NCBI RefSeq assembly: GCF_041248615.1
Contig: NZ_CP158425.1
Direction: 5' to 3' (one strand)
From: Escherichia coli
Lineage (GTDB): Bacteria; Pseudomonadota; Gammaproteobacteria; Enterobacterales; Enterobacteriaceae
Length of the DNA: 64,000 nt
Shown here: one piece after another, positions 2,606 through 41,387 of the stretch
How positions within the stretch are numbered: position 1 is the first letter of the stretch
How the letters are laid out: each line of letters starts with the position of its first letter
Notes under the pieces: model-generated
Databases searched by the model: none
The model's input: only the letters and a program-made list of their open reading frames with translations
What the model was told of the DNA's origin: nothing
Translations under genes and position numbers: made by a program

Positions 2606-2669
2606 TGGACTTGCCTCGGTTTCGTTCCGGTCTTTTTGAGAGCATTATTTGTTATCAAGGAGACCATAT

Positions 2670-2945
2670 ATGTCATTAAAGCATAGTGATGAATTTAAGC
2701 GTGATGCAGTTCGCATAGCACTCACTAGTGGCTTAACACGCCGTCAAGTTGCGTCAGATTTAAGTATTGGGCTTTCCACGCTTGGGAAATGGATCGCATC
2801 AATTTCCGATGAAACTAAAATTCCTACCCAAGACACTGATCTTCTGCGTGAGAATGAACGTTTACGCAAAGAGAACCGTATCCTTCGGGAGGAGAGGGAG
2901 ATATTAAAAAAGGCAGCAATATTTTTCGCAGTACAAAAGCTGTGA
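2670..2945 (+). CDS. IS1133 transposase OrfA (helix-turn-helix)
   Basis: IS3-family OrfA-like protein with leucine-zipper C-terminus; ATG at 2670 preceded by AAGGAG. Confidence 0.8.
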   Translation: MSLKHSDEFKRDAVRIALTSGLTRRQVASDLSIGLSTLGKWIASISDETKIPTQDTDLLRENERLRKENRILREEREILKKAAIFFAVQKL

Positions 2946-3799: not shown

Positions 3800-3905
3800 A
3801 ATGAGAGATAGACCGGAACACAACCGGTGCAAGTCCATAGCAACTCGTTTCTTTTCGCAGGTTGAGCCACCTCCGCGCTTCATCAGAAAACTGAAGGAAC
3901 CTCCA

Positions 3906-4709
3906 TTGAATCGAACTAATATTTTTTTTGGTGAATCGCATTCTGACTGGTTGCCTGTCAGAGGCGGAGAATCTGGTGATTTTGTTTTTCGACGTGGTGA
4001 CGGGCATGCCTTCGCGAAAATCGCACCTGCTTCCCGCCGCGGTGAGCTCGCTGGAGAGCGTGACCGCCTCATTTGGCTCAAAGGTCGAGGTGTGGCTTGC
4101 CCCGAGGTCATCAACTGGCAGGAGGAACAGGAGGGTGCATGCTTGGTGATAACGGCAATTCCGGGAGTACCGGCGGCTGATCTGTCTGGAGCGGATTTGC
4201 TCAAAGCGTGGCCGTCAATGGGGCAGCAACTTGGCGCTGTTCACAGCCTATCGGTTGATCAATGTCCGTTTGAGCGCAGGCTGTCGCGAATGTTCGGACG
4301 CGCCGTTGATGTGGTGTCCCGCAATGCCGTCAATCCCGACTTCTTACCGGACGAGGACAAGAGTACGCCGCAGCTCGATCTTTTGGCTCGTGTCGAACGA
4401 GAGCTACCGGTGCGGCTCGACCAAGAGCGCACCGATATGGTTGTTTGCCATGGTGATCCCTGCATGCCGAACTTCATGGTGGACCCTAAAACTCTTCAAT
4501 GCACGGGTCTGATCGACCTTGGGCGGCTCGGAACAGCAGATCGCTATGCCGATTTGGCACTCATGATTGCTAACGCCGAAGAGAACTGGGCAGCGCCAGA
4601 TGAAGCAGAGCGCGCCTTCGCTGTCCTATTCAATGTATTGGGGATCGAAGCCCCCGACCGCGAACGCCTTGCCTTCTATCTGCGATTGGACCCTCTGACT
4701 TGGGGTTGA
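3906..4709 (+). CDS. strA: aminoglycoside 3''-phosphotransferase APH(3'')-Ib (streptomycin resistance)
   Basis: Protein from NRTNIFFGESHSDWLPVRGG... to ...LRLDPLTWG matches StrA; TTG start at 3906; ORF-track upstream extension not coding. Confidence 0.95.
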   Translation: MNRTNIFFGESHSDWLPVRGGESGDFVFRRGDGHAFAKIAPASRRGELAGERDRLIWLKGRGVACPEVINWQEEQEGACLVITAIPGVPAADLSGADLLKAWPSMGQQLGAVHSLSVDQCPFERRLSRMFGRAVDVVSRNAVNPDFLPDEDKSTPQLDLLARVERELPVRLDQERTDMVVCHGDPCMPNFMVDPKTLQCTGLIDLGRLGTADRYADLALMIANAEENWAAPDEAERAFAVLFNVLGIEAPDRERLAFYLRLDPLTWG

Positions 4710-5545
4710 TGTTCATGCCGCCTGTTTTTCCTGCTCATTGGCACGTTTCGCAACCTGTTCTCATTGCGGACACCTTTTCCAGCCTCGTTTGGAAAGTTTC
4801 ATTGCCAGACGGGACTCCTGCAATCGTCAAGGGATTGAAACCTATAGAAGACATTGCTGATGAACTGCGCGGGGCCGACTATCTGGTATGGCGCAATGGG
4901 AGGGGAGCAGTCCGGTTGCTCGGTCGTGAGAACAATCTGATGTTGCTCGAATATGCCGGGGAGCGAATGCTCTCTCACATCGTTGCCGAGCACGGCGACT
5001 ACCAGGCGACCGAAATTGCAGCGGAACTAATGGCGAAGCTGTATGCCGCATCTGAGGAACCCCTGCCTTCTGCCCTTCTCCCGATCCGGGATCGCTTTGC
5101 AGCTTTGTTTCAGCGGGCGCGCGATGATCAAAACGCAGGTTGTCAAACTGACTACGTCCACGCGGCGATTATAGCCGATCAAATGATGAGCAATGCCTCG
5201 GAACTGCGTGGGCTACATGGCGATCTGCATCATGAAAACATCATGTTCTCCAGTCGCGGCTGGCTGGTGATAGATCCCGTCGGTCTGGTCGGTGAAGTGG
5301 GCTTTGGCGCCGCCAATATGTTCTACGATCCGGCTGACAGAGACGACCTTTGTCTCGATCCTAGACGCATTGCACAGATGGCGGACGCATTCTCTCGTGC
5401 GCTGGACGTCGATCCGCGTCGCCTGCTCGACCAGGCGTACGCTTATGGGTGCCTTTCCGCAGCTTGGAACGCGGATGGAGAAGAGGAGCAACGCGATCTA
5501 GCTATCGCGGCCGCGATCAAGCAGGTGCGACAGACGTCATACTAG
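4709..5545 (+). CDS. strB: aminoglycoside 6-phosphotransferase APH(6)-Id (streptomycin resistance)
   Basis: Protein MFMPPVFPAHWHVSQPVLIADTFSS... matches StrB; start overlaps strA stop (TGATG). Confidence 0.95.
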   Translation: MFMPPVFPAHWHVSQPVLIADTFSSLVWKVSLPDGTPAIVKGLKPIEDIADELRGADYLVWRNGRGAVRLLGRENNLMLLEYAGERMLSHIVAEHGDYQATEIAAELMAKLYAASEEPLPSALLPIRDRFAALFQRARDDQNAGCQTDYVHAAIIADQMMSNASELRGLHGDLHHENIMFSSRGWLVIDPVGLVGEVGFGAANMFYDPADRDDLCLDPRRIAQMADAFSRALDVDPRRLLDQAYAYGCLSAAWNADGEEEQRDLAIAAAIKQVRQTSY

Positions 5546-5570
5546 ATATCAAGCGACTTCTCCTATCCCC

Positions 5571-5651
5571 TGGGAACACATCAATCTTACCGGAGAATAT
5601 CGTTGGCCAAAGCCTTAGCGTAGGATTTCGCCCTCTCCCGCAAACGACCCC
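5571..5651. repeat. Tn5393 81-bp terminal inverted repeat (IRR)
   Basis: Reverse complement aligns with the IRL at 7762-7842 with a few mismatches. Confidence 0.85.
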
Positions 5652-5880
5652 TTTATTGTAGGTGGGCCAGTTGGTGATTTTGAACTTTTGCTTTGCCACG
5701 GAACGGTCTGCGTTGTCGGGAAGATGCGTGATCTGATCCTTCAACTCAGCAAAAGTTCGATTTATTCAACAAATCCACGTTGTGTCTCAAAATCTCTGAT
5801 GTTACATTGCACAAGATAAAAATATATCATCATGAACAATAAAACTGTCTGCTTACATAAACAGTAATACAAGGGGTGTT

Positions 5881-6696
5881 ATGAGCCATATTCAACGGGA
5901 AACGTCTTGCTCGAGGCCGCGATTAAATTCCAACCTGGATGCTGATTTATATGGGTATAAATGGGCTCGCGATAATGTCGGGCAATCAGGTGCGACAATC
6001 TATCGATTGTATGGGAAGCCCGATGCGCCAGAGTTGTTTCTGAAACATGGCAAAGGTAGCGTTGCCAATGATGTTACAGATGAGATGGTCAGACTAAACT
6101 GGCTGACGGCATTTATGCCTCTTCCGACCATCAAGCATTTTATCCGTACTCCTGATGATGCATGGTTACTCACCACTGCGCTCCCCGGGAAAACAGCATT
6201 CCAGGTATTAGAAGAATATCCTGATTCAGGTGAAAATATTGTTGATGCGCTGGCAGCGTTCCTGCGCCGGTTGCATTCGATTCCTGTTAGTAATTGTCCT
6301 TTTAACAGCGATCGCGTATTTCGTCTCGCTCAGGCGCAATCACGAATGAATAACGGTTTGGTTGATGCGAGTGATTTTGATGACGAGCGTAATGGCTGGC
6401 CTGTTGAACAAGTCTGGAAAGAAATGCATAAGCTTTTGCCATTCTCACCGGATTCAGTCGTCACTCATGGTGATTTCTCACTTGATAACCTTATTTTTGA
6501 CGAGGGGAAATTAATAGGTTGTATTGATGTTGGACGAGTCGGAATCGCAGACCGATACCAGGATCTTGCCATCCTATGGAACTGCCTCGGTGAATTTTCT
6601 CCTTCATTACAGAAACGGCTTTTTCAAAAATATGGTATTGATAATCCTGATATGAATAAATTGCAGTTTCATTTGATGCTCGATGAGTTTTTCTGA
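5881..6696 (+). CDS. aph(3')-Ia: aminoglycoside 3'-phosphotransferase APH(3')-Ia (kanamycin/neomycin resistance)
   Basis: Protein MSHIQRETSCSRPRLNSNLDADLYGYKWARDNVGQSGATIYRLYGK...; upstream leader matches Tn903-type aphA1 context. Confidence 0.95.
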   Translation: MSHIQRETSCSRPRLNSNLDADLYGYKWARDNVGQSGATIYRLYGKPDAPELFLKHGKGSVANDVTDEMVRLNWLTAFMPLPTIKHFIRTPDDAWLLTTALPGKTAFQVLEEYPDSGENIVDALAAFLRRLHSIPVSNCPFNSDRVFRLAQAQSRMNNGLVDASDFDDERNGWPVEQVWKEMHKLLPFSPDSVVTHGDFSLDNLIFDEGKLIGCIDVGRVGIADRYQDLAILWNCLGEFSPSLQKRLFQKYGIDNPDMNKLQFHLMLDEFF

Positions 6697-6849
6697 TAGT
6701 TAGTCTTTGTAGAGACACAAACCTGAAATTCCGGACACCGCGCTTCAGGACATCTCCCTGGACGCCGATATCTGGCAGTATCCGGACGGTACTATCGAAC
6801 GCCGGGCCAACGGTACTCCCCTGCCCTTTATGACTGACGACCGGCTATT

Positions 6850-7758
6850 TCACCCACGCACTTCTCCATGAAATTTAGCATCGTCGCGGTTAATGTCGAA
6901 AATTTGCCACCTGACGTGGTTGGCATCGAGGGTGAAAACTGCCGTGGCGAGGGTGTTCTCCTCATCCGGATCGTCGGCAGCCAGCCGGTAAATTGGCAGT
7001 TCTGCGTCATGGGTATCTGAGAGAATGGTTTTTGCCGCCGCGGCGTCAAACGGAGGTTGCGTTTCCCGCCACTGCACGAGGCGTAACTGCCGCGACGCTG
7101 AACTGTCGGTAACGATCTGCTCAACGCCAGCCAGTGCCGCATGCACCAGATGGTTGGCATGCCCGGTTACCGTCGTCAGGGGTAGAACGGAACAGCCTTG
7201 ACCGGTGGCCTCAACGCTGAACAGCCGCGCATCGCCCAGCTGCCCGAGCGTATGGTGAAACGCCCCGGATCGCGGCTGGCCGGTAAGTATAGTGATGGCC
7301 TCGTCGAGGGTGTTCGCATTCAGCGAGGCGCGAGCCAGGATCTGACGCGGTAATCCCTGCGGACGATACACTGCACGGATGTTATTCACCGTGTTAACGA
7401 TACCTTTTTCATTTACCGCAAAGGTGTGGCCGCAAATCGACCCCGGATAGGCAAAACTCGTAAAGCTCAGACCGCGACTCGGAGTAATGGTAGCCAGCAA
7501 GCATTCATCCCGTAACTGAGGAAAACCGTCTTCATTATGCGCGATAATCCGCTCGCCTGCGGCGTTTACCCCGGCCACCGTCGTACAGCCATCCGACGTT
7601 GAGCGCACCAGATCGCCACGGCAGTTCCAGGCAAAGACCTGATCAACAGTGGCCTCCAGTCCCTGCGCCAGCCCCTCCAGCTCCTGCCAGATGTGCGGAT
7701 AATGCCGCTGCACCTCGGCGCGCATTAACCGGGTCTCAGGGGATGCCTGCAGGGTCAT
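6850..7758 (-). CDS. C45-family autoproteolytic acyltransferase/hydrolase-like protein (tentative)
   Basis: About 302 aa; DGCTTV motif resembles the Gly-Cys self-cleavage site of acyl-CoA:6-APA acyltransferase-like enzymes; ends 3 bp before Tn5393 IRL. Confidence 0.5.
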   Translation of the reverse strand: MTLQASPETRLMRAEVQRHYPHIWQELEGLAQGLEATVDQVFAWNCRGDLVRSTSDGCTTVAGVNAAGERIIAHNEDGFPQLRDECLLATITPSRGLSFTSFAYPGSICGHTFAVNEKGIVNTVNNIRAVYRPQGLPRQILARASLNANTLDEAITILTGQPRSGAFHHTLGQLGDARLFSVEATGQGCSVLPLTTVTGHANHLVHAALAGVEQIVTDSSASRQLRLVQWRETQPPFDAAAAKTILSDTHDAELPIYRLAADDPDEENTLATAVFTLDANHVRWQIFDINRDDAKFHGEVRG

Positions 7759-7761
7759 CAC

Positions 7762-7842
7762 GGGGTCGTTTGCGGGAGGGGGCGGAATCCTACGCTAAGG
7801 CTTTGGCCAGCGATATTCTCCGGTGAGATTGATGTGTTCCCA
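7762..7842. repeat. Tn5393 81-bp terminal inverted repeat (IRL)
   Basis: GGGGTCGTTTGCGGGAGGGGGCGGAATCCTACGCTAAGG...; tnpA reading frame terminates inside it. Confidence 0.85.
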
Positions 7843-10680
7843 TCCGAGCGGCGAAACATGGGCCAAGAGATCGGGCGATAGCAGCTTTCCATCGCGTTTC
7901 TGGTTTGCAACGACCTCGCCGAGCTTCATGGTGTTCCAGAAGATGATGATGGCGGCGAGCAGATTCATGCCGGCGATGCGGTAATGCTGGCCTTCGGCGG
8001 AACGGTCGCGGATTTCACCGCGGCGGTGGAAGCTGATTGCCCGCTTCAGCGCATGATGAGCTTCGCCTTTGTTGAGCCCGATCTGGGCACGCCGTTGGAG
8101 TTCGGCATCCAGAATCCAGTCGATCATGAACAGGGTGCGCTCGACGCGACCGACTTCCCGCAGGGCTGTCGCGAGCTCGTTCTGCCGCGGATAGGAGGCG
8201 AGTTTCCGCAGAATCTGGCTTGGCGCGACGGTCCCGGCAGCAATGGTGGCGGCGATGCGCAGGATGTCGGGCCAATTGCGCTCGATCATGGCTTGGTTGA
8301 CCTTTCCGCCGATCAACGCTCGCAGGTGCGCCGGGGCGGCCGACGGATTGAACGCGTAGAGCCGTTTGGATGGCAGGTCGCGGATGCGCGGAGCGAACCG
8401 GTAGCCGAGAATGGCACATGCGGCAAAGACGTGATCGGTGAAGCCGCCCGTGTCGGTGAACTGCTCGCGGATATGGCGTCCAGCATCGTTCATCAGCAGG
8501 CCATCGAGGATGTAAGGCGCTTCGCTTGCCGTTGCAGGAATCACCTGGGTTGCGAACGGCGCATATTGGTCGGAGACGTGGCTATAGGCTTTCAGGCCCG
8601 GGGTATTGCCATATTTCGCGTTGACCAGGTTCATGGCCTCACCTTGCTCTGTAGCGACGAAGAACTGTCCGTCGCTCGAAGCCGACGTGCCCATGCCCCA
8701 GAACCGGGCCATGGGTAACGCTGCCTGTGCCTCGACCACCATGGCCAGCGCCCGGTCATAGGCTTCGCCCTCGACATGCCACCGTCCAATGCGGATCAAT
8801 TCCCAGAAGGTGTGGGTGTTTGTCGCATCCGCCATTTTGCGCAAGCCGAGGTTGATCCCTTCCGCCAAGATAACGTTCATTAGCCCGATCCGGTCAGCGC
8901 AGGGTGCTCCTGTGCGCAGATGGGTGAACGCTTCGGTGAAGCCGGTCGCCGCATCCACCTCCAGCAGGAGATCGGTGATGCGCGTGGGCGGGATCTGCTT
9001 GTAGAGATCGAGCACCAGATCTTCGGCGCCTGTCGGCGCGGCGGCTTCGAGTTTCTCGATATGCAGAACGCCGTTTTCAATCGACCCGCCCGGGATCGTG
9101 CCTGCGCGAGCGGCACGGCCAAGCTCGCGCAACCGCATGTCGAGGCGAGCTTGCCGGTCTGCCAGCCATTCCTCCGGCCGCAATGGCACAGCGAGACGAC
9201 CGCCTTCCGCGATGGATTGTGCCGGAACGAGTGCGTGTTTCAGATCGCCATAGCGCCGGGACCTAGTAAGCCAGACATCTCCGGAGCGGAACGCATCGCG
9301 CAGATGGAACAGCACCGCGATCTCCCATAGGCGAGCGTCGCCAGCCCTCTGGGCCCGAAGGTGGCGATGCCATTTCGAGCTGGGCCGCAAGAAGCTGGTC
9401 ATCGCGGCATCGTTCAAACCGGTACGAAGGGCCGTCACCGCTTCCAGAAGCGGCAGTGCAACGGGCGCAGCTCGCAGATCGAGCAGGCGCAACATGCGTG
9501 GAGCGTATCGGCGGAAGCGGTGATAACCGTCGAGCACATGATTGAGCGGATCGTCGGCCATGGTGGCGGTCAGCCTGGTTGCCATTGCAACAAGGGTTTT
9601 TAAGCCGTCCCACCCTGACCCACTCGCGATGACATCGCCCAGCGGCTGGCCATCATCCTGTGCATCGACCAGGGCGCCCCCGATCTCGGCGAAGGATTTC
9701 AGGGTGTCACGCACCACCCCCGCTTCGTCTGCGACCTTTGCATGGCAAATACGCTCCGAAGCACGGTAGAGACGGCCGACGATCCGGTCGTGGGTTTCGA
9801 CCACTGCGTCGGCCAACATCGCCTGCCATTCCGAGACGCAAACAGCCAAGATCGCAAGCCGCCTGTCCTCCGGGAGATCGCGCATGCCGTCGGCATAATA
9901 CCGTTCACCCTGCCTGCGCAGACGAGTCACCCGATGGGCAGGAACGCCGGCAAGCAGATCCTCGGGGAGATCGATGCGTTGCAGATATTCGAGCCGGTCG
10001 AGCAGCCGGTTGGCCGACGAAGAGTTCGAGCCAGGCTCGAACTGGCGCAGCCACACAAAACGGGTCACCCGATCATCAGCCGTCTCCTCGAGCAATGCCA
10101 GCAACTGTTCTCGGATCGACATAGGCAGCCGACTGGCGATCCTCGTCTCGATGCGTCGCTCGGCATCGACGAGAGCCGCGGCACAAAGCCGCTCGATCGT
10201 GGATGTCGCGGGAAGGACAGTGCGGGTGCGTCGGCACTCGGCTACGAAGCGACGGGCGATATCCTCGTTCGACACCGCCATCTCGGCTTCTCGGAACAAC
10301 CATTCCTTCAGCTCGCTCGCACCACGTCCGGAGAAGGTGCGGAAGCCGTAGAGCCCCCGTAACTCGGCAAGATGCTCGTGCCGTGTTTCCTCGCGGGCAG
10401 CATAGTCTACGAGATCGTCGGCACCCAGGCCAAGCTGCGCTCCGATAAATTCGATGACCTCTGCAGGGATCAGTTCGCCTGGAGCCAGCACCCGGCCGGG
10501 ATAGCGCAGGACACACAATTGCAGGGCGAAGCCGAACCTGTTGTGAGCGCGCCGACGCAGCCTGATATGCCCAAGGTCTTCATCACTCAGCGTATAGTGC
10601 TTGAGCAAATCCGTCTGTGAAGTCGGCAAGCGCAACAGCGCGTCTTTCTGCCGATCGGTTAGAGTGACGCGACGCGGCAT
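7795..10680 (-). CDS. tnpA: Tn3-family transposase TnpA of Tn5393
   Basis: 961 aa ORF typical of Tn3-family transposases; divergent from tnpR. Confidence 0.95.
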   Translation of the reverse strand: MPRRVTLTDRQKDALLRLPTSQTDLLKHYTLSDEDLGHIRLRRRAHNRFGFALQLCVLRYPGRVLAPGELIPAEVIEFIGAQLGLGADDLVDYAAREETRHEHLAELRGLYGFRTFSGRGASELKEWLFREAEMAVSNEDIARRFVAECRRTRTVLPATSTIERLCAAALVDAERRIETRIASRLPMSIREQLLALLEETADDRVTRFVWLRQFEPGSNSSSANRLLDRLEYLQRIDLPEDLLAGVPAHRVTRLRRQGERYYADGMRDLPEDRRLAILAVCVSEWQAMLADAVVETHDRIVGRLYRASERICHAKVADEAGVVRDTLKSFAEIGGALVDAQDDGQPLGDVIASGSGWDGLKTLVAMATRLTATMADDPLNHVLDGYHRFRRYAPRMLRLLDLRAAPVALPLLEAVTALRTGLNDAAMTSFLRPSSKWHRHLRAQRAGDARLWEIAVLFHLRDAFRSGDVWLTRSRRYGDLKHALVPAQSIAEGGRLAVPLRPEEWLADRQARLDMRLRELGRAARAGTIPGGSIENGVLHIEKLEAAAPTGAEDLVLDLYKQIPPTRITDLLLEVDAATGFTEAFTHLRTGAPCADRIGLMNVILAEGINLGLRKMADATNTHTFWELIRIGRWHVEGEAYDRALAMVVEAQAALPMARFWGMGTSASSDGQFFVATEQGEAMNLVNAKYGNTPGLKAYSHVSDQYAPFATQVIPATASEAPYILDGLLMNDAGRHIREQFTDTGGFTDHVFAACAILGYRFAPRIRDLPSKRLYAFNPSAAPAHLRALIGGKVNQAMIERNWPDILRIAATIAAGTVAPSQILRKLASYPRQNELATALREVGRVERTLFMIDWILDAELQRRAQIGLNKGEAHHALKRAISFHRRGEIRDRSAEGQHYRIAGMNLLAAIIIFWNTMKLGEVVANQKRDGKLLSPDLLAHVSPLGWEHINLTGEYRWPKP

Positions 10681-10805
10681 ACATGTTCCTTTTTCAAAAT
10701 CTGATAGCGTTCAAGACGCTTTGTTTATGAAGCTGGTTGAGATACATTTCCAGAGGTCAATGCAATCGTGGCCGAAGCGCCGCCTCAAACCAACGTTTGT
10801 GATAC
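10681..10805. promoter_or_regulatory. res site / divergent tnpA-tnpR promoter region of Tn5393
   Basis: 125-bp intergenic region between divergently transcribed tnpA and tnpR, the usual position of res in Tn3-family elements. Confidence 0.6.
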
Positions 10806-11420
10806 ATGCTGATCGGATATGCCCGCGTCTCCAAAGCCGATGGCTCGCAGTCTCTCGACCTGCAGCACGACGCCTTGCGCGCCGCAGGTGTCGAACGGGA
10901 CAATATCTATGATGATCTTGCTTCCGGCGGTCGTGATGATCGCCCTGGCTTGACTGCCTGCCTCAAGTCATTGCGTGACGGCGATGTGCTGGTGGTCTGG
11001 AAGCTCGATCGCCTCGGACGATCGCTTGCCCATCTGGTCAACACGGTGAAGGAGCTGTCAGACCGCAAGATCGGCCTGCGGGTTCTGACTGGAAAGGGCG
11101 CTCAGATCGACACCACGACTGCGTCCGGTCGCATGGTGTTCGGAATCTTCGCCACCTTGGCCGAGTTCGAGCGGGATCTGATCCGAGAGCGCACCATGGC
11201 GGGTCTCGCCTCCGCGAGAGCGCGCGGTCGCAAGGGCGGACGAAAATTCGCGCTCACCAAAGCTCAGGTGCGTCTCGCGCAAGCCGCCATGGCCCAGCGC
11301 GATACTTCAGTTTCCGATCTCTGCAAGGAACTCGGCATCGAGCGCGTCACTCTCTACCGATATGTCGGTCCCAAAGGCGAGCTCAGAGACCATGGAAAGC
11401 ATGTTCTCGGACTTACGTAG
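10806..11420 (+). CDS. tnpR: Tn5393 resolvase TnpR (serine recombinase)
   Basis: 204 aa; N-terminal MLIGYARVSKADGSQSLDLQ serine-recombinase motif; C-terminal helix-turn-helix. Confidence 0.95.
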   Translation: MLIGYARVSKADGSQSLDLQHDALRAAGVERDNIYDDLASGGRDDRPGLTACLKSLRDGDVLVVWKLDRLGRSLAHLVNTVKELSDRKIGLRVLTGKGAQIDTTTASGRMVFGIFATLAEFERDLIRERTMAGLASARARGRKGGRKFALTKAQVRLAQAAMAQRDTSVSDLCKELGIERVTLYRYVGPKGELRDHGKHVLGLT

Positions 11421-11450
11421 CAACTCGTTTCTTTTCGCAGGTTGAGCCAC

Positions 11451-11871
11451 AGAGGTGGATCAGGAAATTTGAACAACACTTATAAGTGATATTTTGCTCC
11501 CCAAATGATGTTATAAACATCAATATATGGAGTATTTTATGACACGTAGACCAAGAAGAAATCATTCAAATGACTTTAAAGCTAAGGTAGCACTTGCTGC
11601 GATTAAAGCAGAAAAAACACTTGCTGAATTGAGTGCTGAATTTGATGTTCATCAAAACCAAATTATTGACTGGAAAAATCAACTGATTTCAGCTTCCTCG
11701 CAAGCTTTCGATCAATCAAAAGCTCCAACAGAACCACCCATCGATCTAAAAAAACTACATGCAAAAATCGGTGAGCAGGCATTAGAAATTGATTTTTTAG
11801 AAGGTGTGTTGAAGAAACTGGGTCGCTTCAACCACAAAAGTTAATCGATGACTCACTTCAGATTTCAGTAT
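11451..11871 (+). mobile_element. IS3-family element, left end only (AT-rich), truncated
   Basis: Starts AGAGGTGGATCAGG (similar to ends of the IS at 13781-15064); contains OrfA but no OrfB before the IS5-family element. Confidence 0.55.
11539..11844 (+). CDS. IS3-family transposase OrfA
   Basis: MTRRPRRNHSNDFKAKVALAAIKAEKTL... similar to the OrfA at 14669-14980. Confidence 0.7.
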   Translation: MTRRPRRNHSNDFKAKVALAAIKAEKTLAELSAEFDVHQNQIIDWKNQLISASSQAFDQSKAPTEPPIDLKKLHAKIGEQALEIDFLEGVLKKLGRFNHKS

Positions 11872-11938
11872 CTAGGGTCAGGACCCATTGATTTGAACTG
11901 ACGGCTGTGATTCAGATGGGCGTATAGGAGCCCGACTG

Positions 11939-12289
11939 ATGAGTAATTTGTTTTGGCTGACGGACGAGCAAATGGCTCGTCTTCAGCCCTATTTCCCCAA
12001 GAGCCATGGCCGCCAGCGCGTTGATGATCGACGCGTTCTGAGCGGCATCATCTTCGTCAACCGCAACGGGCTGCGTTGGCGTGATGCGCCGAAGGAATAT
12101 GGCCCGGCGAAGACGCTTTATAACCGCTGGAAACGCTGGGGCGACAAGGGCGTATTTATCCAGATGATGGAAGGTCTGGCCGTGCCTGAAGCCGCAGAGC
12201 ACAAGACCATCATGATCGATGCGACCTATCTCAAGGCCCACCGCACGGCTTCCAGCTTGCGGGTAAAAAAGGGGGCGCGGGCCGCCTGA
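11939..12289 (+). CDS. IS5-family transposase, N-terminal ORF
   Basis: 116 aa MSNLFWLTDEQMARLQPYFP... typical IS5/IS427-group OrfA. Confidence 0.75.
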   Translation: MSNLFWLTDEQMARLQPYFPKSHGRQRVDDRRVLSGIIFVNRNGLRWRDAPKEYGPAKTLYNRWKRWGDKGVFIQMMEGLAVPEAAEHKTIMIDATYLKAHRTASSLRVKKGARAA

Positions 12290-12309
12290 TTGGACGCACG
12301 AAAGGCGGC

Positions 12310-12699
12310 ATGAACACCAAGCTTCATGCCGTAACGGATGCGAGTGGTCGCCCGATCAGCTTCTTCATAACGGCAGGCCAGGTCAGCGATTACACCGGTG
12401 CTGCCGCCTTGCTTGATGAACTTCCCAAGGCCAAATGGTTGCTGGCCGACCGTGGCTATGATGCCGACTGGTATCGTGACGCTTTACAGGCGAAGGGGAT
12501 CACTCCCTGCATTCCAGGTCGAAAATCCCGCAAGAAGACCATCAAATACGACAAACGCCGCTACAAACGGCGCAACCGGATCGAGATCATGTTCGGGCGT
12601 CTCAAAGACTGGCGGCGTGTCGCTACGCGTTACGACCGGTGCCCAATGGCCTTTCTCTCCGCCATCGCTCTCGCTGCGACCGTTATCTTCTGGCTATGA
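12310..12699 (+). CDS. IS5-family transposase, C-terminal ORF (DDE)
   Basis: 129 aa, ...LADRGYDADWYRDAL... DDE-domain portion; likely joined to OrfA by frameshifting. Confidence 0.75.
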   Translation: MNTKLHAVTDASGRPISFFITAGQVSDYTGAAALLDELPKAKWLLADRGYDADWYRDALQAKGITPCIPGRKSRKKTIKYDKRRYKRRNRIEIMFGRLKDWRRVATRYDRCPMAFLSAIALAATVIFWL

Positions 12700-12719
12700 G
12701 CAATGAGTCCTGACCCTAG

Positions 12720-13318
12720 CGCATATCAAGCCAGAGGAGCCTGAGGTACTTGGTCTTTTAGCCCTCATGGAACTCCAGTGCTCTCGGCTGCTTGCCCGAC
12801 AAGATCGTCAAGGCTTGCCAGTGCCGCTCGATCGTCAGGATCGTGGCTTGTGGGATCGATTGCTCATACGTCGAGGTCTGGAGATAGTTGAGCGAGCATG
12901 CCGCATGTCGTCTCCCACTGGATGGTATCTTCTGCAAGCGTTGATTTCTGCTTGTCACGCGCGGGCTGCGAGCTTTCGAGACACCAATTGGCGAGAGATA
13001 CTGGCGAGATATGACGCGCTCTTCCTGTTGAGCCCTACATACGTAGTTGCCCTCAATCGAGCAGTCGCTGTGTCGTGGGCCATGAACCCCGCTGCAGGGA
13101 TGGCGGTCCTTAAGGCGATTGAGGACGAGTGGGACGTGGAGACCTACCCGCTTTTTCACGCGACGCGGGCGGATTTCCTTTCGCGTCTTGGTTTCCAAGA
13201 CCAAGCTGCGGCAGCCTATCAGGCTGCGGCCGTACTCAGCACCAACCTACCTCAAAAGTTGTTCTTGGTCACGCGCGCTGAGGAATGCCTGGCAGGGTCT
13301 CGGACAGATGTTGGATAA
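12720..13318 (+). pseudogene. ECF-type RNA polymerase sigma factor, C-terminal domain fragment (GC-rich)
   Basis: YLLQALISACHARAASFRDTNWREI...VVALNRAVAV resembles C-terminal extension of ECF sigma factors; N-terminal sigma regions absent. Confidence 0.45.
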
Positions 13319-13841
13319 CATCAGTCGATTGACGGTGATTGCGCGCACGTGGACGCGCATCATGACAGGTATGACGAGCCTTTGAACGTCCGCTGGCTGT
13401 GCCGGCGCCATCATATCCGGCTGCACTTCTACGGTGAGGACATGTTTCCTATGTGCAGGCCGCATCACGTATGAACGGCGGCTCTCCGGTTATGCCTCAA
13501 CGCCGCTGAAAGCGTCGCGCGGTCAGTCAGCCATGACGATCATACCTTATTCAGATCATGCGATCGGCGCCCTGCCATCAGGAGGATGAAATGCGTAAAG
13601 ATCAGATCCCGGATTTCGTTGATGAGATCTTCGCCACCGGCTGCCCAATCACCGCAGTAGGACAAGATTGCTATGTTTTGCAGAGAGCGATCTGCTGGCA
13701 GAAGACTTCGACCGTGTTGGTGAGGTGGTCGATAAAATCTGCCAGCGATAAGGAAAGCGTGACCATCTGTTGCTGACATCAGAGGTGGCTCGGTTTGTCT
13801 GAACAGTTTTGGGCGTTTTGCTAAGTGGATTTCCGCCTTGA

Positions 13842-14672
13842 TTATGCCGCCACCATCATTGGTGCCAGCGCGTTGAAGTAGGCCTGATCCGGCGTCTGCC
13901 GGTCAAGGGATGAATGTGGACGTCGGCTATTGTAGAAGGCGAGATAGCGGCCGATGCCAGCGCGAGCCTCGGATACGGTCTTGTAGGCGTGGAGATAGAC
14001 CTCTTCGTATTTGATCGACCGCCAGAGCCGCTCGACGAAGACGTTGTCGCGCCACGCGCCCTTGCCATCCATCGAGATGGCGATCTCCGCCTTCTTCAGC
14101 ACGGCTGTGAAGTCGATGGAGGTGAACTGCGAACCCTGATCGGTGTTGAATATTTCAGGCTTTCCATAGCGGGCCAGCGCGTCCTCGACCGCTTCGATGC
14201 AGAAGTCCGCCTCCATCGTGATCGACAGCCGCCAGGACAGAACCCGCCGGCTAAACCAGTCCACGACGGCGCAGAGATAGACGAATCCCCGCGCCATCGG
14301 CACATACGTTATGTCCATTGCCCAGACCTGGTTGGGCCGGGTGACCGCCAGCTTGCGCAGGAGATAAGGATAGATTTTGTGACCTGGCGCTGGTTTGGAG
14401 GTGTTCGGGCGACGGTAGATTGCCTCGATGCCCATCTTCTTCATCAGCGTGGCGACGTGCAACCGCCCGACCTCGGTCCCTTCACCCCTCAAAAGCCCTT
14501 GCAACATCCGACTTCCGGCGAACGGATAGTCGAGGTGCAGTTCGTCGATCCGCCGCATCAGGTCCAGATCGCCGTCGGACACTTGACGTGGAGAATAGTA
14601 GACACTGCCACGGCTGAAGCCGAGAAGCCTGGCCTGACGTGCGACCGACAGTTTGTGTGTTCGGTCGATCAT
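13842..14672 (-). CDS. IS3-family transposase OrfB (integrase core)
   Basis: 276 aa with DITYV...D...E integrase core; overlaps OrfA by 4 nt. Confidence 0.85.
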   Translation of the reverse strand: MIDRTHKLSVARQARLLGFSRGSVYYSPRQVSDGDLDLMRRIDELHLDYPFAGSRMLQGLLRGEGTEVGRLHVATLMKKMGIEAIYRRPNTSKPAPGHKIYPYLLRKLAVTRPNQVWAMDITYVPMARGFVYLCAVVDWFSRRVLSWRLSITMEADFCIEAVEDALARYGKPEIFNTDQGSQFTSIDFTAVLKKAEIAISMDGKGAWRDNVFVERLWRSIKYEEVYLHAYKTVSEARAGIGRYLAFYNSRRPHSSLDRQTPDQAYFNALAPMMVAA

Positions 14673-14980
14673 TTCTTTCCGCCCAGCAATCCCGCTTTGC
14701 CGAGCGCTCCGGCTAAAAAATCATTCTCCAATGTCAGTTCGCCTATTTTGGCGTGCAGCGTTTTGACATCGACGGTTGGACCTGCCGGTTCCGCCTTCGC
14801 TTCATCGCCGAAAACGCCTGTCGCCCCATCAAGGAGCTGGTCTTTCCACTGTTTGATCTGGTTGGCATGCACGTCGAACTGCTGGGACAATTCCACCAGC
14901 GTCTGCTCACCTCGGATCGCGGCGAGCGCCACTTTTGCCTTGAAAGCCGGGCTGTGGTTCCGGCGCGGTCGTCTTGTCAT
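14669..14980 (-). CDS. IS3-family transposase OrfA
   Basis: MTRRPRRNHSPAFKAKVALAAIRGEQTL... Confidence 0.8.
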   Translation of the reverse strand: MTRRPRRNHSPAFKAKVALAAIRGEQTLVELSQQFDVHANQIKQWKDQLLDGATGVFGDEAKAEPAGPTVDVKTLHAKIGELTLENDFLAGALGKAGLLGGKK

Positions 14981-15226
14981 GGTATCTCCTGTTCCCGGCA
15001 TCTAAGCCGAAGTCAGGCAGAAATTCCACTTATCACCGCTGTGCAGATTTCCCGAGCCACCTCTATCGTCGATCATTTGAGGAGCCTCGGCCGTTTCTAC
15101 GACCTGCGGCTTGAGACACTCCAATAGCGACTATGGGTCGGTCCGCGCTTTAGAATAAGGGATCTAGACCCTGTCGCCAATTTTGGCCTGACGGGGGTTT
15201 CCAGCTACGCCTTCATATGTCGTGCC

Positions 15227-15418
15227 TCAGCCGCGCTGCAAGCGCCGGGCACTGATGCCCAGCATGCTGGTGGTCTTCACCTTTCCGCCGACGCGCCTGA
15301 GGATGATGATTGCCGCGTCCGTGGCCAGCCCGGTGCCGATGGCAGCCAAATGACCCAATTGGAACGGCAGATAGCCCGGCTTGACCACGAGAAGCACTCC
15401 GATGAAGCCGATGACCAC
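15227..15418 (-). pseudogene. possible EamA/DMT transporter fragment
   Basis: 63 aa hydrophobic ORF GFIGVLLVVKPG...; short remnant only. Confidence 0.3.
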
Positions 15419-15999
15419 GGCGGTCCACCGCCGAACCGCGATGCTGAAGCCACAAATCGAGCTTTGCGAGGAGTTTCTTTATCCGTCTCAATGAGATAAG
15501 GGCCAACTTTAGATCAAGTGCGTCGTAGTACGGCGTGCACCTTGGGCTTGATCCAGCTATAGTGTAATTGTATGCTGGAAATATGTGCAACCCTGGTGTC
15601 TAGGCCGTGCGAAGCCAATCAGGCTCGAAAGTCGTTGCGGGTTGTTATCCGTTAAAGGCGGCGACTGTAGCCGCCGCTATTTGGCCCCTTGATACCATTT
15701 AGCATTTGGAGCTTTAGGTTCTATAATTTAACGTTACGCTACAGCCGACACCCCGCTTGCCTGAGCGTTTGGATTTCAATCACTTAGTAGACCAACTTGC
15801 GGGTCGACGGTTCGTGTCCCTTCAAGGCGGAGGCTTCGGCAGCTGGCGTCTCTATGCCGCGGTGGTGCTTTTCCGAAACGGAAGTCGCCCATTCGCGTCA
15901 CGTAAACCGACCGTCAGGCGGTACGGCTTAGGAGAATAATCGCAAAGCAGACTGAGACCACCACCCTCGCGCTACCCTTTGCGCAGGCGTCGAAGGCGA

Positions 16000-16542
16000 T
16001 CAGGTGCGCTGATCGAGTCTGTCGAGCACCATCGCTGCAAGTTCATCGCTGGTGTGTGCACCACTATCGAGAACACGGGTTGTGGACGGAAGCCGTTCCC
16101 TTGCGGCCAAGCATCGGGCGACATTCGCTAATCGCCACTCTCGAATCTCCGCATTCCGATTCGGGTCAGGATGCATGGTCTGGTTCGAGATCCGGTGACG
16201 CAATAGGTCCTCGTTAAGCATCAGAAAGATGTGCAGCAGCTGATCGTCGATCTGCCTTAACCCGTCGAGTATCTCAGTCAGATAGTCCGGGTGCACGAGC
16301 GTCATTGGGATGATGATGTCCTGCGAGTAATTCCTGCGAATCTCGCTGACCGCAGCGATCGTAAGTCCCCTCCACAAGGGGAGATCCTGATAGTCTCCGC
16401 TCGCTGGTATGGGGACCGTTTCTTTCACCACGAACCCGATTTCCTCAGGGTCAAAGATCAGCGATTTCGGACGCCGATCGCGCAGCCGCTCAGCGAGAGT
16501 CGTCTTTCCGGCGCCGAAAGGTCCGTTGATCCAGATTATCAT
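16000..16542 (-). CDS. tmrB: TmrB-like P-loop ATPase (tunicamycin resistance protein family)
   Basis: 180 aa with Walker A GPFGAGKTT; lies immediately downstream of aac(3)-II as in remembered contexts. Confidence 0.8.
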   Translation of the reverse strand: MIIWINGPFGAGKTTLAERLRDRRPKSLIFDPEEIGFVVKETVPIPASGDYQDLPLWRGLTIAAVSEIRRNYSQDIIIPMTLVHPDYLTEILDGLRQIDDQLLHIFLMLNEDLLRHRISNQTMHPDPNRNAEIREWRLANVARCLAARERLPSTTRVLDSGAHTSDELAAMVLDRLDQRT

Positions 16543-16554
16543 TGTCGACGGCCT

Positions 16555-17415
16555 CTAACCGGAAGGCTCGCAAGAGCGCTGGGCGGCTTCGTGTGCTGGC
16601 ACGATCGGAGTGGCTCCGAAGTGCTTCTCAAGATAGGTGACGCCGAACGTCACGATGTCCTGCGCGTCGAACAGGTAGCACTGAGCAAAGCCCACGACAC
16701 CTTCTCGATGGCGACCGAGCTTCACGTAAGCATTTGCTATAGTTTCGACCGCATCCGGCTTTCCTTCGATAGCAAAGCAATCGAGAATGCCGTTTGAATC
16801 GTATTCTGATGCCGTTTTCCAGGCGACTTCACCGTTTCTTCCAAGCATCGGCATCTCATACGTCACCCATCGTTTGTTGGGGATATCCGCAACCGCCTCG
16901 GCGTAGTGCAATGCGGTAACGGAGTTTAGCGGCGCACCCAACAGCAGGGCCTTCCCGCCAAGGCGGACGAACCGCTCGACGGGCGACCCTTCCCCCAAGG
17001 CGTGACCGAGTTCGTGAGGCTCCGTCAGCGTTTCAGCTAGCGGACCAACCGCGACCATCGATGCATCGGGGTGCGCGCTGCGCCGCGCGCCGGGGGCTTG
17101 AACCAGAAATTGATTCAGCAGGCCGAACCCACGGTAAGTCCCGGCCGTTGCGGGATCGAACGGCGGCCAGGTACGGCGGGCTTTGTCATCCAACCGAGCG
17201 CCATTCAGAGTCTCCTCGTAGGGTGATCGGTCCCACGACGCGTATCCCATCACAGTGCCAGTCGGCCCAACCGCGGAGCGTAACGCGGCAACGACCGTCT
17301 CCGCTCCTCCTTCGACCGGACCAATCGCTTTAAGTGAGGCATGCACCATCAACAGGTCACCGGTTTGGACTCCGAGTTTTCGAATTGCCTCCGTTATTGC
17401 CTTCCGCGTATGCAT
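16555..17415 (-). CDS. aac(3)-II: aminoglycoside N-acetyltransferase AAC(3)-II (gentamicin resistance); sub-variant not resolved
   Basis: 286 aa MHTRKAITEAIRKLGVQTGDLLMVHASLKAIGPVEGGAETVVAALR... matches AAC(3)-II family. Confidence 0.92.
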   Translation of the reverse strand: MHTRKAITEAIRKLGVQTGDLLMVHASLKAIGPVEGGAETVVAALRSAVGPTGTVMGYASWDRSPYEETLNGARLDDKARRTWPPFDPATAGTYRGFGLLNQFLVQAPGARRSAHPDASMVAVGPLAETLTEPHELGHALGEGSPVERFVRLGGKALLLGAPLNSVTALHYAEAVADIPNKRWVTYEMPMLGRNGEVAWKTASEYDSNGILDCFAIEGKPDAVETIANAYVKLGRHREGVVGFAQCYLFDAQDIVTFGVTYLEKHFGATPIVPAHEAAQRSCEPSG

Positions 17416-17491
17416 CGCGATATCTCCTTTTAAATTAAAAATGAAGTTTTAAATCAATCTAAAGTATATATGAGTAAACTTGGTCTGACAG

Positions 17492-18364
<873 letters not shown>

Positions 18365-18517
18365 TCAATATTATTGAAGCATTTATCAGGGTTATTGTCT
18401 CATGAGCGGATACATATTTGAATGTATTTAGAAAAATAAACAAATAGGGGTTCCGCGCACATGGTGATGCTGCCAACTTACTGATTTAGTGTATGATGGT
18501 GTTTTTGAGGTGCTCCA

Positions 18518-18793
18518 GTGGCTTCTGTTTCTATCAGCTGTCCCTCCTGTTCAGCTACTGACGGGGTGGTGCGTAACGGCAAAAGCACCGCCGGACATCA
18601 GCGCTATCTCTGCTCTCACTGCCGTAAAACATGGCAACTGCAGTTCACTTACACCGCTTCTCAACCCGGTACGCACCAGAAAATCATTGATATGGCCATG
18701 AATGGCGTTGGATGCCGGGCAACCGCCCGCATTATGGGCGTTGGCCTCAACACGATTTTCCGCCATTTAAAAAACTCAGGCCGCAGTCGGTAA
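18518..18793 (+). CDS. insA: IS1 InsA
   Basis: 91 aa [40 protein letters not shown]... Confidence 0.9.
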
Positions 18794-19215
18794 CCTCGCG
18801 CATACAGCCGGGCAGTGACGTCATCGTCTGCGCGGAAATGGACGAACAGTGGGGATACGTCGGGGCTAAATCGCGCCAGCGCTGGCTGTTTTACGCGTAT
18901 GACAGGCTCCGGAAGACGGTTGTTGCGCACGTATTCGGTGAACGCACTATGGCGACGCTGGGGCGTCTTATGAGCCTGCTGTCACCCTTTGACGTGGTGA
19001 TATGGATGACGGATGGCTGGCCGCTGTATGAATCCCGCCTGAAGGGAAAGCTGCACGTAATCAGCAAGCGATATACGCAGCGAATTGAGCGGCATAACCT
19101 GAATCTGAGGCAGCACCTGGCACGGCTGGGACGGAAGTCGCTGTCGTTCTCAAAATCGGTGGAGCTGCATGACAAAGTCATCGGGCATTATCTGAACATA
19201 AAACACTATCAATAA
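18712..19215 (+). CDS. insB: IS1 InsB reading frame (expressed as InsAB' by frameshift)
   Basis: 167 aa ORF overlapping insA. Confidence 0.9.
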
Positions 19216-19230
19216 GTTGGAGTCATTACC

Positions 19231-20737
19231 CTCCCCTCAAAGCCATATCACGTACGTTAATCCTGACTTCATTAAAATCAGTGGTTTCACTGAGGAAGAA
19301 CTATTAGGCCAGCCTCACAACATCGTAAGACACCCAGATATGCCGCCTGCTGCATTTGAGCATATGTGGAGTACATTAAAATCTGGCCGCTCATGGATGG
19401 GGCTAGTAAAAAATCGCTGTAAAAATGGCGACCACTATTGGGTAAGTGCTTATGTAACGCCAATAGCTAAGAATGGTTCGATTGTTGAATACCAGTCTGT
19501 AAGGACCAAGCCTGAACCTGAGCAGGTTTTGGCTGCGGAAAAATTATATGCTCAATTGAGAAGCGGGAAGGCCGCGAGGCCGAAATTGGCTGCTAGCTTT
19601 TCCGTGAAAATACTCTTGCTCATATGGGGTAGTATTATATCAAGCGCAATGGCTGCCGGCATGCTTACTGATACATCAATAAGCAGCTTATTGTTAGCCA
19701 CTTTAATGTCAGGAAGCTTAAGCTCTGTTAGTGTTTTGGCTATTCTCTCTCCTCTTGGAAGACTGGTTGAAAGAGCCAGGAATATTTCCAATAACCCATT
19801 AAGTCAATCCCTCTACACTGGGCGCACCGATGAGTTTGGCCAAATAGAGTTTGCTTTACGAATGATGCAAGCTGAAACAGGCGCCATAGTAGGTCGCATA
19901 GGTGATGCATCAAATCGGCTTAGCGAACACACCCGAGGCCTACTAAAGGATATTGAGTCAAGCAATGTACTTACAGTTGAGCAGCAGGCAGAGACAGATC
20001 AAATAGCAACGGCAGTAAACCAAATGGTGGCAAGCATTCAAGAGGTTGCGAGCAATGCACAGCATGCTGCAGATGCGGCCGGAAGAGCAGACACTGAGAC
20101 GGCATCTGGCCAGCGTCTGGTAGCCCACACAAGCCAGTCAATCACTGCCCTTGAAGGTGAAATTAGGCAAGCCACTCAGGTTATTCATGAGCTTGAAGGT
20201 CAAAGTAACGAGATATCAAAAGTTCTTGACGTTATACGAGGGATCGCCGAGCAAACGAATTTGTTGGCACTCAACGCAGCAATTGAGGCCGCGCGTGCTG
20301 GTGAGCAGGGGCGTGGTTTTGCTGTTGTCGCCGATGAGGTTCGCAGTCTTGCTGCTCGCACACAGCAATCGACAACGGATATTCAAAGCATGATCAGCGC
20401 TCTACAAGAGCGAGCGCAATCCGCTGTTACAGTCATGGAGCAAAGTAGTCGGCAAGCGCACACGAGTGTAGCTCACGCAGAGGAAGCAGCTACAGCTCTT
20501 GATGGAATTGGCCAACGCGTTAACGAAATTACCGACATGAACGCGCAAATAGCGACTGCGGTCGAGCAGCAGGGAGCAGTAAGTGAAGACATAAACCGCA
20601 GTATTATCAATATACGCGATGCTGCTGATACCAATGTACAGACCGGGCAGAATAATTTGCAAAGTGCGAAATCTGTCGCTCAGTTAACTAGCGCTCTGAG
20701 CGAACTGGCAAAACAGTTTTGGGAAAAACGAGGATAA
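19231..20737 (+). pseudogene. aer: aerotaxis-receptor-like PAS/methyl-accepting chemotaxis protein, 5'-truncated by IS1
   Basis: [16 protein letters not shown] segment and MCP signalling domain resemble Aer; first ~25 codons missing, frame starts at the IS1 boundary. Confidence 0.7.
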
Positions 20738-20870
20738 CGCTTTTCAGTATCTCGACAGGGATAACTTACTTTACCATCGGTTATCCCTTTTAGCCGCACA
20801 AATTTTAGCCATGGCTTTTCAGGAAGTCAGGGCTATCAGAATGGCCTTAGAAAGCCTAGTCAAAGAGCTG

Positions 20871-21671
20871 TCACGAGAACACCGTTAGCTTAGCGTACGA
20901 TTTTTTCCGAATTCTGCGGTTCCCCCTTAAATACCTTCCGATGGACTTAAACCTTGCCGCTGCAACTTCCTCGAAATAGGGCAGCATTCTTTTGCTGGCA
21001 TTAGCGATTGCCTGCGTTCGTTGTGTGATGATTTTGCTGATGGCTGTGCTGATCTGCCCTTCTTTTAAGGCCGCTTCTCTGATTTGTTCAATGCGGGTAT
21101 CTGAAATACCAGAGGACAGAGCATTCTGAACTGATCCAATTGCCAAGGAAGTGACCGCCTGCTGCTCTTGAGAGGGCACTAACGCAACGCTAATGCCCGT
21201 CACAGGGTTTTCACGGTCATCTGTACCTAATTGCTCAATCGCGAGGTCACGGAGCCCCTGAGCATCACTCACGAGGGCTGTAAGCGATGCCTGTAGGCTA
21301 TTCACTTCTTCCTGAGCTTGTCTGAGTTCAGCATCCCGGATTACCTTATGGTCGGGTTCAAATACAAAACTGGACAGAAAATCCTTAACCAGGAAGCGAT
21401 GCTCTCGCATTTCTTTGCCACGTTCCCTACGGTAGCCACTGCTGTCTTCAGTGACAATAGCAACAGTCTGACCGTAAACGCGGGGATGGGCGCGTAGAAT
21501 TACTGTATGCAGCTTATCTTCAACGTAACGCAAAGACGTAATGAGCAGTGTATCCCCTGCCACAATACCCTCTTCAGGGATGCTGTCAGTGGACGTCCAG
21601 TACTGACCCGCCAGCAAAGAATGAAATCGCTCTAAACGGTCAATGCTATTTTTGCTGACCAGGTCACCCAT
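20871..21671 (-). CDS. hypothetical protein (266 aa)
   Basis: ORF with GGAAGGA upstream of the ATG; no recognisable motif. Confidence 0.5.
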   Translation of the reverse strand: MGDLVSKNSIDRLERFHSLLAGQYWTSTDSIPEEGIVAGDTLLITSLRYVEDKLHTVILRAHPRVYGQTVAIVTEDSSGYRRERGKEMREHRFLVKDFLSSFVFEPDHKVIRDAELRQAQEEVNSLQASLTALVSDAQGLRDLAIEQLGTDDRENPVTGISVALVPSQEQQAVTSLAIGSVQNALSSGISDTRIEQIREAALKEGQISTAISKIITQRTQAIANASKRMLPYFEEVAAARFKSIGRYLRGNRRIRKKSYAKLTVFS

Positions 21672-21864
21672 ATACTTTTCCTTCCAGATTCGTGTGTTAG
21701 GTGAATCATACCAGATTGCCCTTGCCGTCTAATAACGCAGAAAACTGTGAATCCAAAATTCCTTAAATTCAAACCTGTCCAATATAAAAGATGGCTCTTT
21801 TTCTTATCCAGTGTTAAGCGATAATGCTCAATTTTATTTCATTATTGTCAGAATCAAAATAATC

Positions 21865-38604: not shown

Positions 38605-38605
38605 A

Positions 38606-41384: not shown

Positions 41385-41387
41385 GGT

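Follow-up and report, generated by a model that had tools for sequence, protein, structure and literature searches.

A probable IS1 adjacent deletion set blaTEM-1 beside a truncated Tn1721 mcp gene on an IncHI2 mcr-1 plasmid

In the window analysed here, a stretch of 64,000 nucleotides of Escherichia coli DNA, a single IS1 separates blaTEM-1 from a 5'-truncated chemoreceptor gene (Δmcp) of the transposon Tn1721. The two junctions of this IS1 differ in age. As judged from plasmid comparisons, the right, IS1-Δmcp junction is old, whereas the left, bla-IS1 junction is essentially private to the host plasmid, so that two events rather than one appear to have brought blaTEM-1 beside Δmcp. The best explanation for the younger junction, and in our view the probable one, is an IS1 adjacent deletion next to the Tn1721 remnant, produced by one-step intramolecular transposition.

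A 9-kb query from the window retrieved one record that matched at 100% over the full length, plasmid p14408_M1 of E. coli NRZ14408 (NZ_LT599829.1; window coordinates are record coordinates minus 128,000). This plasmid has a length of 238,073 bp, belongs to the IncHI2 group and carries mcr-1.1. Its 37-kb resistance island is bounded on the right by the 38-bp terminal inverted repeat from the mcp end of Tn1721 (20889-20926, reverse strand; record 148889-148926), with the 5-bp target duplication TTAAA adjoining at 20927-20931. The partner repeat (record 111856-111893), which forms the left boundary, and the partner TTAAA (record 111851-111855) lie outside the window. These are the only two Tn1721 terminal repeats in p14408_M1; they face each other, and TTAAA stands beside each. 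When the outer flanks were joined and one TTAAA removed, an unbroken backbone open reading frame of 388 codons was obtained, and 17 other IncHI2 records matched this empty site at all 240 of 240 positions. The paired repeats, the TTAAA duplication and the intact empty site together indicate that the island represents a Tn1721 insertion in the IncHI2 backbone, later filled and eroded.

The tetA(A), tetR, pecM and tnpR genes and the res site of Tn1721 are located at 113.6-118.4 kb of the record, about 28 kb to the left of Δmcp. The tnpA gene is incomplete and mcp is missing its 5' end. The features that define Tn1721/Tn1722 are present: 38-bp repeats, a 5-bp duplication, mcp beside one inverted repeat, a tetR-tetA(A)-pecM module and a divergent res-tnpR-tnpA arrangement. 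The island agrees with those of IncHI2 ST4 mcr-1 plasmids, in which resistance regions are found at one site and include a Tn1721 module (PMC7843963).

The gene to the right of IS1 (19231-20737, forward strand) is the orfI (mcp) gene of Tn1721/Tn1722, described in 1992 by Allmeier et al. as cited in PMC5052281; its modular place within Tn1721 is given in PMC7319535. From nucleotide 71/72 on, it is 100% identical to the 525-aa mcp of Tn1721 in the Aeromonas plasmid pFBAOT6, where the gene sits between the resolvase gene and the transposon end. The one-nucleotide ambiguity of the breakpoint arises because the last C of IS1 coincides with the native mcp base. The window copy lacks codons 1-23 and two bases of codon 24, beginning with the third base of that codon; the original prediction, which had put the loss at about 25 N-terminal codons, was right to within one or two (23-24 relative to the intact gene). 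Absent with this segment are the promoter, the start codon and residues 1-24, which include the PAS N-cap. The 202 bp that lead from the Tn1721 res region to the breakpoint, with promoter and start codon, were not found anywhere in the plasmid.

The mcp protein contains the Pfam domains PAS_3, HAMP and MCPsignal, and its closest relatives of solved structure are chains of E. coli Aer (E = 3e-65 for the full-length protein; E = 4e-42 for the PAS domain against 8DIK). The PAS domain aligns with the Aer structures in the same residue numbering. The putative membrane hairpin, judged by eye, is a run of hydrophobic residues at about 150-195 in full-length numbering, and the order of a cytoplasmic PAS domain, membrane hairpin, HAMP and MCP signalling domain is that of Aer-type receptors. 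Among NCBIfam models, no equivalog scored above its cut-off for this receptor. The label "Aer-like" that the gene had been given from its sequence is accurate. The same proposal had regarded a chemoreceptor gene as unusual plasmid cargo, and on this point it does not hold: a query with 19231-20900 matched 2,852 PLSDB plasmid records, with an identity of at least 99% in nearly every case, from Klebsiella, Escherichia, Salmonella, Aeromonas, Pseudomonas and others. Because mcp is a standard passenger gene of Tn1721/Tn1722 in so many plasmid records, it is not unusual cargo.

The segment between the two genes (18463-19230) is a complete IS1 of 768 bp on the forward strand. It is of the IS1B type and is 100% identical to IS1B-type copies present in 4,950 of 5,426 complete E. 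coli genomes. The element retains its two terminal inverted repeats, the left one (IRL, 18463-18485) reading GGTGATGCTGCCAACTTACTGAT and the right one (IRR, 19208-19230) reading GGTAATGACTCCAACTTATTGAT; 18 of their first 23 positions agree, in keeping with the length and the imperfect repeats of about 23 bp of the IS1 family. The insA frame (18518-18793) and the insB' frame (18712-19215) are both open on the forward strand in the open-reading-frame list. The motif AAAAAAC, read directly at 18769-18775 and in accord with the frame organization of the family, is what we take to be the IS1 -1 frameshift signal.

The 9-bp flanks of the element are unequal. The left flank (18454-18462) is CGCGCACAT, and the right flank (19231-19239), which lies within mcp codons 24-27, is CTCCCCTCA; since they differ, there is no target-site duplication, and the 9-bp direct duplication expected of a simple IS1 insertion is missing at 18463-19230. 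Re-inspection thus bears out the earlier reading of this IS1 as having intact ends and no duplication. The missing duplication is explained by later rearrangement and does not argue against the identity of the element; loss of target duplications by adjacent deletion or by recombination between IS copies is documented (PMC11708052). An inversion or a composite transposon was also considered and was ruled out, as a second IS1 with matching flanks was found neither in the window nor in the whole 238-kb plasmid, which carries a single IS1 copy.

On the left, IS1 abuts a Tn2 fragment (about 17425-18462) that includes blaTEM-1 and also occurs in other plasmids. The blaTEM-1 coding sequence (286 aa; 17492-18352, reverse strand) is present in the open-reading-frame list, and the source record annotates the product as TEM-1. 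It is preceded by 110 bp of native Tn2 sequence (18353-18462, reverse strand), read directly, which ends at 18462 against the left end of IS1; past this break, intact Tn2 in three comparison records reads CGCGCACAT followed directly by TTCCCCGAAAAGTGCC. The open reading frames and the comparisons with Tn2 and pFBAOT6 accordingly confirm the originally proposed layout, with the blaTEM promoter region to the left of IS1 and a truncated aer-like gene to the right.

The two junctions were then followed through public plasmids with 160-bp probes. An identical IS1-Δmcp junction was found in at least 77 PLSDB plasmids. Its carriers include IncHI2, IncF, IncI-gamma/K1 and IncFIB/IncY plasmids from E. 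coli, Salmonella, Klebsiella and Enterobacter, and at least five distinct left flanks occur beside it, including catA1 of Tn9, a truncated GNAT gene, a class 1 integron-adjacent sequence and blaTEM-1. The bla-IS1 junction, in contrast, was found in one piece only in p14408_M1 and p39EVA-1 among 72,556 plasmids and 5,426 E. coli genomes. The idea that one event had joined bla to the receptor gene fails on this distribution, given that the right junction recurs with other left flanks and the left junction is nearly private.

In p39EVA-1, an unrelated plasmid, the position of IS1 upstream of bla is the same to the nucleotide, and the right flank of the element is a different one. Only the Tn2 fragment and IS1 are common to the two plasmids, and they differ by four SNPs in the bla fragment and by seven in IS1, so that p39EVA-1 is not a clear donor of the junction. 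The commonest alternative left flank of the IS1-Δmcp junction, ending in CCCCTGTAATCCTA, is found beside a class 1 integron in pKUSR18 and in IncF, IncI and IncY plasmids.

Reciprocal junctions were sought as well. The mcp-side reciprocal, in which the 5' part of mcp through CTCCCCTCA is followed by the left end of IS1, had no one-piece match in PLSDB; three two-piece matches represent another IS1 insertion about 100 bp deeper in mcp, in Enterobacter mcr-9 plasmids.

The probable origin of the left junction emerges from comparison with pSE08-00436-1, a sister IncHI2 mcr-1 plasmid from Salmonella in Germany whose genes on the left side of bla are arranged identically. Positions 3874-18462 of the window, that is, 14.6 kb to the left of IS1, align with this plasmid without gaps at 99.98% (3 mismatches), and positions 18463-21676 align at 100%. 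The sole difference between the two aligned blocks is a surplus of 7,264 bp in pSE08-00436-1 (38524-45787 of the retrieved locus, L016), which contains the rest of Tn2, IS26, Tn21-type tnpR/tnpA, a GNAT gene and catA1::ISApl1. The right end of this segment falls exactly at base 1 of IS1, its left terminus, and the left flank CGCGCACAT of the window marks the distal endpoint.

In the long form, Tn2 continues beyond this flank as TTCCCCGAAAAG, and catA1 meets IS1 in the junction characteristic of Tn9. Because both junctions of the long form are native continuous sequence, we infer that it is ancestral and that the window carries the deletion, the direction of change being from the long form to the short. 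The long form, with or without ISApl1, occurs in at least seven IncHI2 plasmids, and the short form in the p14408_M1 record alone. A distance of 7.3 kb separates blaTEM-1 from the IS1 to its right, with the strand unchanged, in pSE08-00436-1, pMCR_1085_C1 and other plasmids. A shorter deletion, of 2,289 bp, occurs in CP070406 and CP070398; it starts at the same IS1 end and reaches into the GNAT gene, forming a nested series with the window. The variant with the CCCCTGTAATCCTA flank is not a third member of this series: the flank is absent from both strands of pSE08-00436-1, and that variant therefore arose by another route.

These comparisons decide between the two mechanisms that had been suggested for the arrangement, an IS1-mediated deletion or a replicon fusion. 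The deletion stands for the left junction. A fusion, in which IS1 would have joined a bla-bearing replicon to an IncHI2 plasmid that already contained Δmcp, would account for the lack of a target duplication and for the unrelated sequences on either side of the element. A cointegrate, however, has a direct IS1 copy at each of its two junctions, and p14408_M1 has one IS1 only; moreover, pSE08-00436-1 and its relatives already combine both flanks on a single IncHI2 molecule with order and orientation unchanged, and the 99.98% identity to pSE08-00436-1 extends over 14.6 kb on the left side of bla. We regard the fusion as effectively refuted and its probability as negligible.

It is also improbable that the short form is an assembly artefact in which two genuine copies of IS1 were merged, concealing the DNA between them. 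IS copies are classic collapse points of short-read assemblies, and the NZ_LT599829.1 record is flagged as linear. Nevertheless, the bla-IS1 junction sequence must stem from real reads, and the unique parts of the 7.3-kb segment are missing: Tn21-type tnpA/tnpR, the GNAT gene, catA1 and the reciprocal Tn2 sequence TTCCCCGAAAAGTGCCACCTG were all absent from the entire 238-kb p14408_M1.

The left junction presents what is expected of a deletion driven by a resident element. The endpoint lies at the IS1 terminus, the right junction is unchanged, and the retained flank formerly lay distal to the IS end, on the same molecule and with the same orientation. A deletion that starts from the exact IS terminus, keeps the IS and its other junction, has a variable distal end and leaves no duplication is the signature of an adjacent deletion, and such deletions by intramolecular transposition of IS elements are known (PMC9330008; PMC11708052).

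We propose the following course of events. Tn1721 would have inserted in the IncHI2 backbone and founded the resistance island. In an earlier event than the deletion, the IS1 of a Tn9/Tn2670-like catA1 module would have been placed inside the mcp gene of Tn1721, removing the promoter and the first 24 codons before the resulting junction spread to many plasmids. The immediate ancestor, resembling pSE08-00436-1, would have had the order aac(3)-IIe, blaTEM-1, rest of Tn2, IS26, Tn21-type tnpR/tnpA, GNAT, catA1::ISApl1, IS1 and Δmcp. The IS1 transposase may then have acted within this molecule, joining the left end of the resident IS1 to a target site located 110 bp upstream of blaTEM-1, and through intramolecular replicative transposition the intervening 7,264 bp would have been lost as a circle. 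What remains would be one IS1 that keeps its old right junction, is newly joined on the left and has no 9-bp duplication.

That the deletion occurred in one transpositional step, as opposed to two steps, is deduced from the plasmid comparisons. In a two-step route, which we consider possible but doubtful, insertion of a second, directly oriented IS1 at 110 bp upstream of blaTEM-1 would have duplicated CGCGCACAT, and RecA recombination with the resident IS1 would then have dropped the 7.3 kb together with one IS1. The product would be identical to that of the one-step deletion, and the IS1 of p39EVA-1 at the same nucleotide suggests that an independent copy could once have stood upstream of bla. 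That IS1 differs from the window IS1 at positions 262-555 only, and a crossover within the first 261 bp would consequently be traceless. However, the intermediate expected from this route, with the right end of IS1 followed by CGCGCACATTTCCCC (the bla-side reciprocal junction), had no one-piece match in 72,556 plasmids, and the bla-IS1 junction itself is confined to two records in PLSDB and the 5,426 E. coli genomes. The SNPs noted above leave p39EVA-1 as no obvious donor, and the route requires two rare events where one is enough. We thus favor the one-step adjacent deletion.

Upstream of blaTEM-1, the hexamers GACAAT (-10; 18394-18399, reverse strand) and TTCAAA (-35; 18417-18422, reverse strand) form what is presumably the P3 promoter of Tn3/Tn2; they were not flagged by a consensus promoter scan. 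The end of IS1 is 40 bp from the -35 box, and neither the promoter scan nor direct reading of the sequence revealed a new promoter-like site across the bla/IS1 junction. Judged from these sequence features, blaTEM-1 appears to retain its own P3 promoter, with no sign of changed bla expression.

On the opposite side, a hybrid IS1/mcp open reading frame of 506 aa (19217-20737, forward strand) begins at a TTG codon in the right inverted repeat of IS1, one nucleotide past the insB' stop and in a different frame from insB'. PGAP annotates its product as WP_001301397.1. The original prediction had left room for an alternative start that would restore a full receptor; this TTG gives only the hybrid, in which the five IS1-encoded residues MESLP take the place of 24 native ones. 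In terms of Aer, what is missing is the N-cap in full (residues 1-19) along with the beginning of strand Aβ, and no promoter-like site directed outward at the IS1/mcp junction was found in the promoter scan. The Aer N-cap has been reported to be essential for PAS stability and signalling (PMC9668731). Having neither a promoter nor the PAS N-cap, Δmcp is most likely an inert remnant.

At least 77 plasmids, from several incompatibility groups, share the hybrid frame in identical form. It is conceivable, though very improbable, that this frame is expressed weakly through IS1 read-through or TTG reinitiation, that the N-cap-less receptor enters host chemoreceptor arrays and biases motility, and that it has been kept for that reason. 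The naming of this hybrid as an ordinary chemotaxis protein in public records is an annotation artefact.

The case, of little import beyond bookkeeping, illustrates how a single resident IS1 probably pares down the resistance island in epidemic IncHI2 mcr-1 plasmids. The deletion discarded the already broken catA1 and transposon genes and spared both blaTEM-1 and aac(3)-IIe. For typing, the variable flank to the left of IS1 offers a cheap lineage marker, and the IS1-Δmcp junction is a stable marker that many plasmids have in common.

Among known systems, the closest are the classical gal/IS1 deletions, said to have been described by Reif and Saedler in 1975. IS1 adjacent deletions, as reviewed in PMC9330008, are alike in the exact terminus, the retention of the IS and its other junction, the lack of a 9-bp duplication and the nested endpoints; the p14408_M1 case is the same in kind, and its assignment derives from plasmid comparison. 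An IS1-like element upstream of blaTEM-6, which created a hybrid promoter (Goussard et al. 1991, as listed in PMC9330008), is similar in that IS1 lies immediately upstream of blaTEM. In contrast to that case, P3 is intact in p14408_M1, IS1 ends beyond the -35 box, and the junction is spanned by no promoter-like site.

E. coli Aer has the same architecture as the mcp product, with an N-terminal PAS domain, a hydrophobic hairpin, HAMP and an MCP signalling domain. In contrast to Aer, the mcp product is a putative receptor encoded by a transposon passenger gene, of which the window copy is devoid of residues 1-24 and the promoter.

Remnants of Tn1721/Tn1722 of the type "IR-Δmcp" have been reported previously (PMC7319535; PMC5052281) and likewise consist of the 38-bp Tn1721 inverted repeat and the 3' part of mcp at one edge of a resistance island. 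For these, too, 5-bp direct repeats show that the disruption came after transposition (PMC7319535). The p14408_M1 remnant, cut by IS1 at codon 24, measures 1,696 bp, compared with 1,455-1,707 bp for those in Klebsiella (PMC7319535). Neither the components nor the process is new, and an annotated source record is publicly available; the bla/IS1/Δmcp arrangement is ordinary mobile-element scarring.

At each border of the entire 37-kb resistance island stands a Tn1721 inverted repeat together with one copy of a duplicated TTAAA, one at window 20889–20931 and its partner beyond the window, at record positions 111851–111893. The Tn1721 insertion split a 388-codon IncHI2 backbone ORF, the 5′ part of which is annotated as a 266-aa minus-strand ORF (window 20871–21671) that ends within the Tn1721 inverted-repeat sequence. 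An intact, empty insertion site is present in 17 other IncHI2 records.

Within the island, the ORF that begins at the right end of IS1 (window 19217–20737) is an IS1/mcp hybrid, in which codons 1–5 derive from IS1. It is annotated as WP_001301397.1, 'PAS domain-containing methyl-accepting chemotaxis protein', and the public annotation of many plasmids presents the hybrid as an ordinary gene.

To the left of IS1, aac(3)-IIe (window 16555–17415) starts only 76 bp away from blaTEM-1, the gap being window 17416–17491. The Tn2 fragment common to other plasmids starts at approximately 17425, and thus the aac(3)-II module seems to lie immediately next to the Tn2 end. Farther away, window 1–5651, comprising the sul3-side genes, IS26, IS1133, and strA-strB, is inverted compared with the sister Salmonella IncHI2 mcr-1 plasmid pSE08-00436-1, in which strA-strB is duplicated. 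These two differences suggest an IS26-associated rearrangement at another place in the island.

In the unrelated IncFIA/FIB/X1 plasmid p39EVA-1 (NZ_CP138417.1, 3065–3848), an IS1A-type copy occupies, to the nucleotide, the position upstream of blaTEM-1 that IS1 has in the window, also without target duplication; the two loci differ by 7 SNPs in IS1 (positions 262–555) and 4 in the bla fragment. Either IS1 may have struck a hot spot independently in the two plasmids, or the junction may be an old one that both have in common. Within the same plasmid family, the IS1/blaTEM-1 junction of the pig-associated IncHI2 plasmids NZ_CP117034.1 (2110–3885), OY754830, and CP122769 is different from that in the window: IS1 is located 37 bp further upstream of blaTEM-1, which mcr-1.1 directly adjoins.

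On the mcp side, a module in which approximately 1.4 kb separate a dfrA1-aadA1 integron and intI1 from IS1, Δmcp, and the Tn1721 inverted repeat is identical across IncF, IncI-gamma/K1, and IncFIB/IncY plasmids (NC_025139.1, OW848878.1, and NZ_CP063951.1). Because the 5 bp adjoining the inverted repeat vary among these plasmids (AGTAA, TATAA, and TATTC), the module seems to have travelled as one unit. Enterobacter IncHI2 plasmids, represented by pC45-VIM4 (NZ_LT991958.1, 2640–6072), carry an IS1 break elsewhere in the Tn1721 mcp, after the equivalent of window 19336. These plasmids retain the 5′ half of mcp together with res-tnpR-tnpA, joined by IS1 to mcr-9, likewise without target duplication.
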